Under the pieces are notes generated by a model. The model saw only the letters and a list, made by a program, of their open reading frames with translations, was not told the DNA's origin and made no database searches. Shown here in pieces: positions 44,410-47,665 of a DNA stretch of 64,000 nucleotides (within the stretch, counting starts at the first letter, position 1; every line of letters begins with the position of its first letter). The stretch lies in UHGV virus genome UHGV-1366603; one strand, given 5' to 3'. Source of the stretch: a virus. The position numbers and the translations under genes were made by a program.

Positions 44410-44718
44410 ATGGAAAACTATTCGGGTTGGGCAATTTCGCAGTGCATTGGCTATTCTTTACGTTCTTTAGTGCGTACACTTTATAACAAAAACTCAGGTG
44501 AAGCTATTACACCACAGTTACTGGGCAAATTGGAAGTCGAAGTTAACCACAAATTAAAGCAGTTACTCGACAACCACGTAAGAACAATGCGTTGGGAGTT
44601 TTTGTTGCGTGGTAAGAAGCCGTCAATTACTGTTGTGGCAGAAGGCAGTGAAATTGTTCTCCAATCCAACGCAGACCTGTTTGAAATTTTAACTGAACTC
44701 GAAAAGGACAAAATCTGA
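44410..44718 (+). CDS. hypothetical protein (102 aa)
   Basis: ORF track. Confidence 0.5.
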
Positions 44719-45752
44719 TGAAACAGTATTTAGCGTTAATGCAAGACATTCTGGATAACGGCGTTGTCAAGAAAGACCGTACAGGCGTAGGGACACTTTC
44801 TGTATTTGGCCGTCAACTACGTTTTGACCTGAAAGAAGGTTTCCCATTAGTTACTACGAAAAAGGTTCACCTGAAAAGTATCATTCATGAACTGCTGTGG
44901 TTCTTAAACGGTGACACTAACGTGAAGTACCTGCAAGAGAATGGGGTAAGAATTTGGAACGAATGGAGTGATGAAGAGGGGAACTTAGGGCCAGTATATG
45001 GTAAACAATGGCGCGAATGGCGCGACTGTAAAGTTGTGGAATGTCACGATGTAGGACGTACACAACAACTAATGCAGCTCGGTTACAAGTATATTGGGAA
45101 CATAAAGGAAGACGGTACGACGTATTTGGTCTATGAAAAAGCACATGACCAGATCAGTAAAGTTATCCAACAACTTCGTGAAGACCCAGATTCTCGCCGC
45201 ATTATTGTTAGTGCCTGGAACGTAGCCGACCTGGACGACATGGCACTTAACCCATGCCACAACTATTTCCAATTCTACACTACAGAAATGACACTGCTTG
45301 AACGACTGGATTGGTACGAAGTAAACGAGCCGGAAAAATTTGCGAGCGCACCGCTTATTAATCACGAAGATATTGATGATGAAGAGCGGCTTCAAGAAAC
45401 TTTAGATCGTGAGGGCATTCCACGCCGTAAGCTTTCATGTTTTTACATGATGCGGAGCAACGATTACCTACTCGGCGCGCCATTTAACATCGCTTCCTAC
45501 GCTCTGTTAACCTATATGGTTGCACAGCAGTTGAACATGGTTCCAGACGAACTCGTTTACAGCGGCGTAGATGTTCATCTGTACTCTAACCATCTGGAGC
45601 AAGCAAAACTTCAGCTTACACGCGAACCATACCCGTTACCTAAACTGGTTATCAAACGTAAACCTGATTCTATCTTCGATTACAAATACGAAGACTTCGA
45701 ATTAGTCGGCTATCAAGCACATCCACATATTGCGGCCCCCGTCGCAGTATAA
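44718..45752 (+). CDS. thyA: thymidylate synthase (ThyA-family) with two insertions
   Basis: N-terminal ~100 aa close to enterobacterial ThyA ([45 protein letters not shown]); catalytic NPCH and [10 protein letters not shown] present; C-terminus ..[28 protein letters not shown]..; extra segments at ~45020-45125 and ~45300-45440. Confidence 0.85.
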
Positions 45753-45782: not shown

Positions 45783-46229
45783 ATGTCTAAAACTCATGTT
45801 AACTATAACATCGTAGTAGAAGAATTATCAAAAGGTTTAACCGATCTGGATTCTAAAGATAATCCGTTTACCGATCGCTATGGTCCCAATGCTTTGTCTG
45901 AATTTCGTACTATCCGCTACGGTACAGGTAGGCAGATGGGGCTTACAGACTTTGGTGTCGAGTTAGCTAAGAACCATAAAGGGAAAGTATTATTCGTTAA
46001 CCCAAAAGGGTTCTTAGAGGACGATGTGCTATTCCGTTTAGGTCTCGAAGACTTACCGGAGAATATCACACAAATCAGCGGTTACCAAATGGGTACAGAA
46101 AAAGAAAAATACAGCCTTGTCATTGTAGACGACGCTGGGGTTTTCTTTAGCATGTTCCGTTACATGAAGTTCTTCCGCTTACTTGCAAACTCAGTAACTA
46201 AAGACGTTGTAATCCATTTAATAGGTTAA
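45783..46229 (+). CDS. hypothetical protein (148 aa)
   Basis: ORF track. Confidence 0.55.
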   Translation: MSKTHVNYNIVVEELSKGLTDLDSKDNPFTDRYGPNALSEFRTIRYGTGRQMGLTDFGVELAKNHKGKVLFVNPKGFLEDDVLFRLGLEDLPENITQISGYQMGTEKEKYSLVIVDDAGVFFSMFRYMKFFRLLANSVTKDVVIHLIG

Positions 46230-46249
46230 TTAATGACGAGGGAATTCTT

Positions 46250-46400
46250 TATGTCGAATGATGTCATTAAAGTTACTATAAAGTATATCAATCTGAATAA
46301 GAGAATCCGTTGCAAAGTAAATCGTAAAGCTATCGCTAGTCGCTGGCGTAAAGGACCACACAAGGGTCGTAAACGCTTTCTGGCTTTTTGGGATGTCTGA
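46250..46400 (+). CDS. small basic protein (49 aa)
   Basis: MSNDVIKVTIKYINLNKRIRCKVNRKAIASRWRKGPHKGRKRFLAFWDV; below the ORF-track cutoff. Confidence 0.3.
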
Positions 46401-46624
46401 TGAAAAAACCACGTTTTCACAGCCTGAGATACTTTACAGGTACTCTATATTTTATTGGCTACAACCGTGTACGTAAGGGTCCTGGTAAATCGAAGATGCG
46501 CATCGTGCGATATAAAGAGACGCCGCCAGGTCTAGCACCGATGGCGAAACTTCTGTCGCCGTTCGCTAACCTTAATATCAAAACTGTTAACCCCTTTGTA
46601 AGAAATCTGGAAACTAAAAAATGA
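46400..46624 (+). CDS. small basic protein (~74 aa)
   Basis: ATG overlapping the upstream stop (TGATG); ..RVRKGPGKSKMRIVRYK.. resembles the RWRKGPHKGRKRF segment of the preceding ORF. Confidence 0.4.
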   Translation: MKKPRFHSLRYFTGTLYFIGYNRVRKGPGKSKMRIVRYKETPPGLAPMAKLLSPFANLNIKTVNPFVRNLETKK

Positions 46625-46764
46625 CTGAAGAAGTTAAAGTAGAAGCCGTTAAAGAAACTGACGAATTTGCAATCCCTGGCTTAGACCCGGAAGCGACCGT
46701 AGAGAAAGGTGCTGACCCAACTACGGAAGACGATAACTGCTCAGGCGGGGCTTGCAAAATTTAA
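46621..46764 (+). CDS. small acidic peptide with C-terminal CSGGACKI (47 aa)
   Basis: ATG overlapping the upstream stop; below the ORF-track cutoff. Confidence 0.3.
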   Translation: MTEEVKVEAVKETDEFAIPGLDPEATVEKGADPTTEDDNCSGGACKI

Positions 46765-46772
46765 CAGTTCAC

Positions 46773-46813
46773 GGGGTGCTTATGTAGCACCCCTAATCCT
46801 TATTCTTTTTTTG
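46773..46813 (+). terminator. rho-independent terminator (GGGGTGC-TATGTA-GCACCCC + long T-run)
   Basis: Seen directly in the sequence. Confidence 0.6.
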
Positions 46814-46834: not shown

Positions 46835-47665
46835 ATGGGCGAACGTTTTAACATCAACGCTATTTACAACATCGTAGTTAATCCTGGTCAGCACCTGGAA
46901 GAAGTTAACGCGCAACTGCGTGCTCTGAATGAGAAGGCAATACAGTTCGACGCCATTTACACAATCGGTGTAAACCCTGGTACCAATCGTATTCGCGTGG
47001 AAGGTAAACGACACACCGGCACTCAAGAACTGGACATCGAAACGATTGAAGCACCGATTAAACTTACTGATGCTGTTTATAACGGTACAGTAATGCACAC
47101 CGTATCGGTTCCGGTCTATTCTATTGCGAACTGTGCAGAACATGTTAAAGGTTGGTCTAAAGAACGCGGCATCCTCGATAACGGTAAACTGGAAACTCAA
47201 ATCACGAAATTCTTTGAAGAGTTTGGTGAAATTGCAACGGGTATCAGTAAAAACAAACCTGATTTGATCATGGACGGGATCGGCGATGCGTTAGTGGTTT
47301 TAGTGAACATCCTGGAGCTGGGTAAAGACAAACTGTCTGGAGAAATGACAACCGCTGAAATCATCGAGCACGGTTTACAGTTGCAGGTAGATGATGTCGC
47401 TGACGTTGAAGAACATTTTGATGACAACGGGTATCCACATCATTTGTATCTCCACGCTACCGAAATCTTCGCTACCGCATTTATTCGCTCCGATGCTGGG
47501 TTCGATCAGCTTAACTGGGCTTTGTACCGCCTTGCAAAACTGGCTCTCTACTATCGTCTTGACATTCGTCATTGTTTCTCTTTAGCCTGGCACGAAATCA
47601 AAGACCGTAAAGGTTACCTGAACGCCGACGGCATCTTTGTAAAAGAAGCAGACTTGGCGAAATAA
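46835..47665 (+). CDS. MazG-like nucleoside triphosphate pyrophosphohydrolase domain protein with N-terminal extension
   Basis: ..KFFEEFGEIATG..(x10)..LIMDGIGDALVVLVNILELG.. matches the MazG EExxE ... E/DxxGD helix pair. Confidence 0.6.
   Translation: MGERFNINAIYNIVVNPGQHLEEVNAQLRALNEKAIQFDAIYTIGVNPGTNRIRVEGKRHTGTQELDIETIEAPIKLTDAVYNGTVMHTVSVPVYSIANCAEHVKGWSKERGILDNGKLETQITKFFEEFGEIATGISKNKPDLIMDGIGDALVVLVNILELGKDKLSGEMTTAEIIEHGLQLQVDDVADVEEHFDDNGYPHHLYLHATEIFATAFIRSDAGFDQLNWALYRLAKLALYYRLDIRHCFSLAWHEIKDRKGYLNADGIFVKEADLAK

Follow-up and report, generated by a model that had tools for sequence, protein, structure and literature searches.

A small acidic phage protein that resembles the redox tail of ribonucleotide reductase, encoded beside two basic mini-genes in a SPN3US-like jumbo phage

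Introduction

The supply of DNA precursors is limited by ribonucleotide reductase (RNR), an enzyme that many large phages encode themselves. The stretch of DNA analysed here, 64 kb of a SPN3US-like jumbo phage (UHGV virus genome UHGV-1366603; hereafter the window, within which all positions are counted), raises the question of whether a phage may instead carry only a piece of that enzyme. Near one end of a block of nucleotide-metabolism genes lie three overlapping mini-open reading frames (ORFs), named ORF1, ORF2 and ORF3 (Table 1), which encode two very basic peptides and an acidic peptide ending in CSGGACKI. What are these small proteins, and why are they encoded together? Below we show that the C-terminus of ORF3 is specifically similar in sequence to the C-terminal redox tail of NrdA, the alpha subunit of class Ia RNR, and we weigh what this similarity may mean.

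Results

The C-terminus of ORF3 resembles the redox tail of NrdA

As an unbiased test, a profile built from nine members of the ORF3 family was compared with 177,635 distinct Protein Data Bank (PDB) sequences at E <= 10. Every one of the 14 matches came from a class Ia RNR alpha subunit, and in each the alignment spanned roughly the final 15 residues and reached the very end of the chain. Among them were residues 747-761 of E. coli NrdA (E = 0.022) and 1QFN_B, a 25-residue peptide comprising the NrdA tail in isolation, whose structure is reported to be that of a complex with glutaredoxin-1. Seeing this likeness took the family profile, a single-sequence phmmer search of the PDB with ORF3 having returned only a spurious ankyrin repeat match. 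In the opposite direction, the best tblastn match of NrdA in the window, and in the whole SPN3US genome, was the C-terminus of ORF3 or of its homolog, again aligned end to end.

E. coli K-12 NrdA is 761 aa long and ends in …LVPSIQDDGCESGACKI (DDGCESGACKI), which contains Cys754 and Cys759. The last 15 residues of ORF3, PTTEDDNCSGGACKI, pair end to end with NrdA 747-761, PSIQDDGCESGACKI, so that the ORF3 end, C40-SGGA-C45-KI, places its two cysteines on C754 and C759. The CX4C pair thus falls among the final 8 residues, at the very end of the chain, and is invariant in the nine aligned phages and in seven further clusters; it is preceded by an acidic segment ([DE][DE]x), and the isoelectric point of ORF3 (4.05) is the same as that of the NrdA tail. 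Phage tails share 9-10 of 15 residues with NrdA, in register with the C-terminus: SPN3US and CR5 carry PSKDDDNCTGGACKI against PSIQDDGCESGACKI of NrdA, Phobos gp116 ends in GCESGACKL and Asesino gp255 in EDDGCAGGACKI.

At the DNA level, identity to nrdA amounts to 18-21 of 24 nucleotides at codon positions 1 and 2, and to 3-6 of 12, the random level, at position 3. This pattern argues that the likeness is kept by selection on the peptide and does not stem from recent DNA capture; with third codon positions unrelated, we rejected a recent acquisition of host nrdA DNA. In NrdA the tail is a covalent part of an RNR alpha chain with a ten-stranded catalytic barrel, whereas the ORF3 family consists of stand-alone proteins of 39-121 aa. 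Because the barrel is lacking, and neither nrdA nor nrdB is present in SPN3US, Phobos or the window, ORF3 is a tail look-alike and not a member of the NrdA family. We conclude from these alignments that the ORF3 tail resembles NrdA specifically.

ORF3 homologs are widespread small proteins with a fixed C-terminus

By tblastn, ORF3 homologs were detected in 63 phage records. ORF3 matches the C-terminal end of the profiles phrog_38753, phrog_14561 and phrog_24014 (E = 1e-14, 1.1e-14 and 3.4e-13), all three of which comprise hypothetical proteins without functional annotation, such as SPN3US gp234 (numbered by CDS count), Caitlin gp246 and Asesino gp255. Our search of the SPN3US literature found no mention of gp234. 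A profile search of 1.84 billion representative proteins added seven further clusters of stand-alone proteins of 39-92 aa, likewise matched at their C-terminal end, and in Seoulvirus, Machinavirus, Erskinevirus, Derbicusvirus and Alexandravirus the homolog is a stand-alone peptide of 39-97 aa. In each of the nine annotated phages inspected at this locus, it lies among genes for thymidylate synthase (ThyA), dCMP deaminase or MazG.

Across the family the N-termini vary freely and the C-terminus follows the pattern DDxCxxGACK[IL]. The residues invariant in the nine aligned members are PGLDP, G.D and the C-terminal C..GACK. These comparisons identify the C-terminal module, which is what ORF3 encodes, as the ancient part of the gene. 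The ORF3 part is predicted to be disordered in a low-confidence model, as expected for a tail.

Two observations on individual members deserve mention. In P0003, a 78-aa form from one ENA contig, a frameshift in the tail (…DDNCSVLTQLRK…) destroys the CX4C end, through either a sequencing error or a natural knock-out. In addition, an acidic [MF]D[FL]x(1-2)IPG stretch before IPGLDP ('DPMDFGDIPG' in Asesino gp255) resembles by eye the C-terminal tip of the single-stranded DNA-binding protein (SSB; …PMDFDDDIPF). This likeness is probably not meaningful, as the stretch is internal and the PDB profile search returned no SSB entry.

The three ORFs are genes under purifying selection

Whether the ORFs are genes was judged from codon-phased substitutions in about 20 related metagenomic or assembly contigs. 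For ORF3, the ratio of replacement to synonymous polymorphism (pN/pS) was 0.09 in frame, versus 3.9 and 85 in the other frames, and codon position 3 held 16 of the 22 variable columns. For the ORF2 core, delimited as aa 1-40 (46400-46519), 42 codons gave a pN/pS of 0.30, versus 0.86 and 1.11 in the other frames. The ORF1 motif, 13 codons compared between the window allele and an allele of about 65% identity from relatives (ORF1'), showed eight synonymous versus three replacement changes, with a pN/pS of 0.12. These substitution patterns demonstrate that ORF1, ORF2 and ORF3 are real genes, each under purifying selection in its own frame only. Two ORFs on the minus strand (64 and 60 aa) run over ORF1 at 46226-46420; they are probably spurious, since the substitution pattern supports the plus frame. 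An RNA element was rejected as an explanation of the region on the same codon-phased pattern and because Rfam and tRNA searches of the region found none. Pfam, NCBIfam and PADLOC gave no accepted match for any of the three ORFs, a PADLOC match to Cas10d at E 0.04 being dismissed as noise.

The genes are tightly packed. ORF1 and ORF2 overlap by one base (TGATG at 46398-46402), and ORF2 and ORF3 by four (ATGA at 46621-46624), an ATGA overlap being present as well between ORF1' and ORF2 in relatives. At both junctions the stop codon lies over the next start codon on the same strand, the arrangement expected of translationally coupled genes. An in-frame ATG at 46233 would give an alternative ORF1 of 55 aa; the start at 46251 is favoured because of the Shine-Dalgarno-like GAGGG upstream of it (Table 1) and the starts in relatives. 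ORF1' relatives carry AAGGAAA at the position equivalent to GAGGG. The Shine-Dalgarno sites of ORF2 and ORF3 are weak.

The original prediction had described three overlapping mini-ORFs and made their standing depend on conservation of the reading frames in relatives. The frames are indeed kept, under in-frame purifying selection, and the overlaps and coordinates are right, save that ORF1 had been placed at 46250, one base early. Its description of two very basic peptides sharing an RKGP segment (pI 11.7 and 11.2, with the motif found in these two only) and of an acidic third peptide with C-terminal cysteines (pI 4.05, CSGGACKI) is borne out as well.

Most relatives encode ORF2 and ORF3 as a single gene, which is split at an A-run in the window

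Most ORF2 homologs are 120-121 aa long (P0004, P0006 and P0008-13) and read through into ORF3 (...NLGTK-M[ST]EEVKVE...). The junction was tabulated at 23 loci. A junction of the form ACT-A4-TG yields a 120-aa fusion (L015-18, L022) and an A7 run a 121-aa fusion (L040), and an A6 run splits the gene with an ATGA overlap (the window, L005-14, L041/42). The A6 allele occurs both with ORF1 and without it, L041/42 representing the background without ORF1. The start methionine of ORF3 is kept in every fused form. We conclude from this comparison that most relatives carry ORF2 and ORF3 as a single gene, which is split in the window. The three mini-genes of the original prediction are thus genuine and tightly overlapping, but they are not three independent peptides. 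In four other loci (L019-21, L023) the linker is broken by a frameshift or an in-frame stop, yet both the ORF2 core and ORF3 are intact. Selection therefore acts on two units, a basic N-terminal core and an acidic C-terminal module, and the linker between them is expendable.

The ancestral gene would thus have encoded a 120-aa protein made of a clade-specific, very basic, beta-rich N-module with an RKGP loop, a loose linker and a conserved acidic, disordered C-module. Two extra A's in the homopolymer would have split it into ORF2 and ORF3 in the window, and translation of ORF3 would restart at the conserved internal methionine via the ATGA overlap. A-runs can be phase-variable or slippage-prone, and -1 frameshifting is known at A-rich sites such as dnaX. 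ORF3 lies in the -1 frame of ORF2, and the A-run ends at the stop codon (ACT AAA AAA TGA); the site has no canonical X XXY YYZ heptamer. Slippage of the P-site Lys-tRNA at AAA AAA TGA is a possibility and, judging from the reading frames, would recreate exactly the A7 fusion. The A-run alleles may, on the other hand, be a simple mutational polymorphism. Either way, the locus provides a clean natural case of a gene that toggles between fused and split, coupled forms at a homopolymer.

ORF1 and ORF2 share a basic motif and are probably related

ORF1 and ORF2 share the segment R.RKGP.K[GS][RK].R (31-RWRKGPHKGR-40 in ORF1, 23-RVRKGPGKSK-32 in ORF2), and a six-frame translation of the window shows no further RKGP. 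Composition-preserving shuffles gave P = 0.005-0.009 for the shared motif, and a profile-profile comparison of ORF1' with ORF2 by hhalign gave P = 0.0014 over 26 gapless columns (YF-x12-RKGP.K...R). By these statistics, the similarity is real but modest. It is most simply read as the product of a partial tandem duplication, which would make ORF1 a probable partial paralog of the module in ORF2 (YF-x12-RKGPxKxxxR).

The ORF1 family comprises 33 clusters, mostly of the 57-65 aa form (ORF1': ...YFEPKKFRTIVTRCRKGPRKGRKRFQVIQLSYS..LE.NPFE...), of which the 49-aa ORF1 of the window is a divergent allele. In the chimeric P0027 the two forms are joined at the motif. The seven residues K, G, P, K, G, R and K of KGP.KGRK are invariant in 20 family members of 63-89% identity. 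ORF1 is missing from several close relatives and has no PHROG match. For the ORF2 core, neither family nor structure searches gave a match, and no homolog was found outside its own two 50% clusters among the 1.84 billion representatives. Both are thus orphan mini-proteins under selection.

Low-confidence models give ORF1 and ORF2 the same topology, beta1, beta2, a basic loop with RKGP, and beta3; a Foldseek search with the better AlphaFold model returned nothing below E 0.9. The models suggest a basic beta-hairpin that would bind nucleic acid or an acidic partner, the ORF3 part included. Several other identities were considered and set aside. A uL14/bL34-like identity for ORF1 had no Pfam support, and its PDB profile matches (E 0.3 and 6) were lost with a 20-sequence profile. 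An HNH homing endonuclease remnant was suggested by tblastn matches to actinophage HNH genes at E 1-8; ORF1 has one His and one Cys and no Pfam match. The tblastn searches of ORF1 and ORF2 against phages gave only noise at E >= 1. Finally, ORF2 as a remnant of the nrdA 3' end ('TLYFIGYNR' against NrdA 'KTLYYQNTR') was rejected, the profile having found nothing in the PDB at E <= 10, nor beyond its own clusters.

A putative mimic of the host NrdA tail

Neither the full annotation of SPN3US (240 kb) nor that of Phobos (229 kb) contains an RNR, thioredoxin or glutaredoxin. ThyA, thymidylate kinase and MazG are annotated in both phages, and dihydrofolate reductase in SPN3US. The jumbo phage phiKZ, by contrast, has RNR genes. 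By tblastn with E. coli NrdA, NrdB and redoxin sequences entered by hand, nothing was found in SPN3US, Phobos or the window beyond the match to the peptide tail, and no thioredoxin-fold protein was found in the same three. During turnover, class I RNR oxidises a pair of active-site cysteines (PMC11903788, PMC4078304). The resulting disulfide, in the active site of the second polypeptide, is reduced by a cysteine pair on the flexible alpha C-terminus, and thioredoxin or glutaredoxin in turn re-reduces that pair (PMC11903788, PMC4078304). A conserved free peptide with such a tail, made by a phage reliant on the RNR of its host, would most plausibly engage the same partners.

The most likely role of ORF3, and the best explanation of the whole, is that of a trans-acting mimic of the redox tail of host NrdA. 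Since the evidence is comparative and the similarity short, our confidence in this functional claim is about even. As a separate molecule, the peptide would target the proteins that the host tail normally engages, presumably thioredoxin, glutaredoxin or NrdA. It would be reduced by host thioredoxin or glutaredoxin-1, or enter the NrdA active site, or both, and would either ferry electrons to that site or compete for the site and for the redoxins. The result would be a modulated re-reduction half-cycle of host RNR and, through it, of the supply of deoxynucleoside triphosphates (dNTPs) during infection. More tentatively, and as a scenario we would not yet bet on, enterobacterial jumbo phages that lack RNR may supply a diffusible NrdA tail to the relay, boosting re-reduction or diverting redoxins, with the basic RKGP module tethered to it or co-translated, and with the hypermutable A-run or -1 slippage setting the ratio of tethered to free peptide.

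A number of points weigh against this interpretation. The likeness covers 12-15 residues at E of about 0.02; it is specific but short, and convergence is possible. The absence of RNR was checked in two complete genomes and in the 64 kb of the window genome. The effective concentration of a free peptide at the active site would be far below that of a tethered tail, which calls the benefit to the phage into question. The F.IPGLDP...VEGG.D part of the peptide has no significant counterpart in NrdA, NrdB, TrxA, GrxA or T4 NrdC (the last three as sequences entered by hand). The relationship between ORF1 and ORF2 rests on P of about 0.001-0.009, and the AlphaFold models have low confidence (predicted local distance difference test scores of 42 and 58) and were judged too poor to build on. 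Because the PGLDP block has no counterpart, the peptide is more than a copy of the tail; the PGLDP...VEGG.D block may dock another partner.

Our literature search found no description of a phage-encoded copy of an RNR tail. If the proposed role is right, ORF3 would represent an undescribed viral control of host dNTP synthesis by a detached piece of an enzyme, in which takeover proceeds by mimicry of a mobile catalytic tail and not by a whole enzyme or an inhibitor fold. It would also offer a natural probe of the poorly understood re-reduction half-cycle of class Ia RNR, and a function for PHROG families so far annotated as hypothetical only.

Alternative explanations

We next consider four other explanations of the locus. 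The least unlikely of them is that ORF1 and ORF2 are nucleic-acid-binding proteins, each a basic beta-hairpin arm tipped by Gly-Pro. They would coat DNA or RNA or condense it, and might be packaged, and ORF3 would mask the basic module, within one molecule or in trans, instead of acting on RNR. The charges agree with this (Table 1), the models place RKGPxKG in the beta2-beta3 loop, the fusion of basic and acidic parts in most relatives fits charge masking, and there is a weak, non-significant likeness to basic strands of ribosomal proteins. Yet no family or structural match backs it, and SPN3US, Caitlin, CR5 and other annotated relatives have ORF3 only, which leaves the conservation of ORF3 unexplained. 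The location in a metabolic operon speaks against it too, and we found no mention of these proteins in virion proteomes in the literature. The original prediction had likewise proposed DNA-condensing or packaged virion proteins, on account of a nearby virion block. This proposal found no support: ORF1-3 share the plus strand with ThyA and MazG and virion genes lie on the opposite strand, which assigns them to a nucleotide-metabolism operon and not to the virion block, and ORF3 looks like an NrdA tail. Nucleic-acid binding by the ORF1 and ORF2 modules as such is possible, given their basic composition.

Could ORF3 simply be the relic 3' end of a lost phage nrdA, either without function or retained for something other than RNR or thiol redox chemistry? 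An RNR-bearing ancestor is plausible, as phiKZ, a related nucleus-forming jumbo phage, encodes RNR subunits, and the resemblance is confined to the extreme C-terminus. Against this stand the low pN/pS (0.09) and the presence of conserved homologs in at least five genera and in the further clusters, which speak for a current function, and the identity of the invariant residues, namely the redox-relevant C..GACK plus the extra PGLDP block. Moreover, the DNA bears no trace of nrdA and no other nrdA fragment lies nearby. We regard a relic as rather improbable.

More improbable still is the idea that ORF1 and ORF2 are young and largely dispensable, a de novo or decaying N-extension and its duplicate, which would act mainly as upstream ORFs setting the translation of ORF3 by coupling, their proteins having no function. 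Both are orphans of one clade, close relatives differ in whether they carry ORF1, stops and frameshifts are tolerated in the ORF2 linker, and the weak Shine-Dalgarno sites of ORF2 and ORF3 fit coupling. However, purifying selection acts in frame only (0.30 for the ORF2 core, 0.12 for the ORF1 motif), KGP.KGRK is invariant in the 20 ORF1 members, and the ORF2 core is intact where the linker is broken.

Lastly, it is very doubtful that ORF3 is another kind of cysteine peptide, such as a metal-binding or redox-sensing one or a precursor of a ribosomally synthesized and post-translationally modified peptide (RiPP) matured by phage radical S-adenosylmethionine (SAM) enzymes, with a coincidental likeness to NrdA: the short acidic, leader-like N-terminus, the C-terminal Cys core and the two adjacent radical-SAM genes in each of SPN3US (L032:40024-42139) and Phobos (L037:39056-41303) would suit a RiPP, but these genes lie about 60 kb (SPN3US) and 37 kb (Phobos) from the peptide gene and not adjacent to it as RiPP maturases do, the window has no radical-SAM gene and no CxxxCxxC ORF, the neighbours are ThyA, the 148-aa gene and MazG, and the PDB profile search gave only RNR alpha tails, in register to the C-terminus. 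The reading of ORF3 as a mimic of the NrdA tail remains the one we prefer.

Locus layout and neighbouring genes

A near-identity search of 50,697 phage records gave no close match to the window. By distant blastn it is syntenic with SPN3US/Caitlin-like jumbo phages, at 65-72% DNA identity, which infect Salmonella, Erwinia, Cronobacter and E. coli. The mini-ORFs belong to the end of a long plus-strand block that runs through ThyA, the 148-aa gene, ORF1-3 and the MazG-like gene (Table 1); the Pfam MazG score of the latter is 20.3 bits, just below the 22-bit cut-off. The next virion genes, on the minus strand, encode a DUF7941 protein, a 733-aa protein and a 2378-aa SLT-domain protein.

Table 1. 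Positions of ORF1-3, their motifs and the adjacent features in the window
Feature	Position	Strand	Remarks
ORF1	46251-46400	+	49 aa, very basic, pI 11.7, net charge +13; accessory, clade-restricted orphan family
ORF2	46400-46624	+	74 aa, basic, pI 11.2, net charge +15
ORF3	46621-46764	+	47 aa, acidic, pI 4.05, net charge -9; C-terminus CSGGACKI
GAGGG, Shine-Dalgarno-like	46238-46242	+	8 nt 5' of the ORF1 ATG; read from the sequence
ORF1 motif RWRKGPHKGRKRF	46341-46379	+	from selection and family alignment
ORF2 motif RVRKGPGKSKMRI	46466-46504	+	shared RKGP segment
A6 homopolymer, ORF2/ORF3 junction	46616-46621	+	from the junction table of 23 loci
IPGLDP block of ORF3	46672-46689	+	PGLDP invariant in nine aligned family members
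Last 15 residues of ORF3, PTTEDDNCSGGACKI	46717-46761	+	aligned to E. coli NrdA 747-761
Hairpin GGGGTGCT-loop-AGCACCCC	46773-46793	+	3' of ORF3, followed by a T-rich tract to about 46812
148-aa gene, phrog_2586	45783-46229	+	upstream neighbour
MazG-like nucleotide pyrophosphohydrolase	46835-47665	+	directly downstream; phrog_7855, E 6e-72
Thymidylate synthase (ThyA)	44718-45752	+	intact, 344 aa

The hairpin 3' of ORF3 has a folding energy of -16.3 kcal/mol (z = -4.45) and is kept in close relatives; L016 and L018 have a different sequence in its place. Standing in front of the MazG gene, it may act as a terminator or stabilise the RNA. A simple terminator scan did not call it, because the T-run begins about 10 nt past the stem.

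A homolog of phrog_2586, the family of the 148-aa gene, lies immediately 5' of the ORF3 homolog in SPN3US, Caitlin and Asesino. The 148-aa gene has no Pfam, NCBIfam or PDB match and contains, by our reading, a Walker-B-like 'LVIVDDAGFFF'; it is cleanly deleted in relatives of the L005/L019 type (L005:5534-5610), where MSKTHVN remains, joined to the last codons. The thyA gene, intact in the window, is interrupted in some relatives. At L022:1387-3505, a 269-aa GIY-YIG/NUMOD3/I-TevI-like homing endonuclease lies between two ThyA fragments, in the layout of a T4 td-type intron, and at L016:1857-3170 the ThyA gap is about 250 nt long and holds no ORF. In the Derbicusvirus phages CR5 (L024:2584-3069) and Phobos (L027:2587-3033), an extra gene of 148-161 aa stands between the ORF3 homolog and MazG. 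This gene overlaps the stop codon of the ORF3 homolog and is annotated in CR5 as 'similar to Arn.3'. The ORF3 homologs of CR5 and Phobos have long N-terminal extensions (78 and 97 aa) that start with MKERNGVVDNSH.

Comparison with known systems

The closest known counterpart of ORF3 is the redox tail of NrdA itself (about residues 737-761). Both have an acidic flexible segment and a DDxC-x4-CK[IL] end, and the phage genes sit among neighbours of dNTP metabolism. By contrast, the phage peptide has no catalytic barrel, carries the extra PGLDP...G.D block and, in the clade of the window, is fused or coupled to a basic module; its redox activity is a prediction. Within the phage world, the profile matches make ORF3 a bona fide member of PHROG families 38753, 14561 and 24014, but the window copy is coupled, and in relatives fused, to a basic N-module that was not found in the named phages.

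Yeast Sml1, a small RNR regulator, competes with the C-terminal domain of R1. The reference list of PMC4078304 includes a paper on Sml1 as ref. 16. Sml1 and other small disordered eukaryotic RNR regulators are, as ORF3 would be, small unstructured proteins that bear on the tail-mediated regeneration of RNR. They differ in that Sml1 has no sequence similarity to ORF3, is no copy of the tail, has no CX4C, serves a cellular checkpoint and is an established inhibitor. Other phages are known to intervene in the thioredoxin/glutaredoxin-RNR axis or to recruit host thioredoxin: T4 encodes the redoxin NrdC, and the T7 DNA polymerase captures thioredoxin. T4 and T7 supply or bind the reductant, whereas phages with ORF3 would supply a copy of the substrate tail. 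Finally, the A4, A6 and A7 alleles, which switch between one long ORF and two overlapping ORFs, liken the locus to systems in which genes are split or fused at homopolymers.

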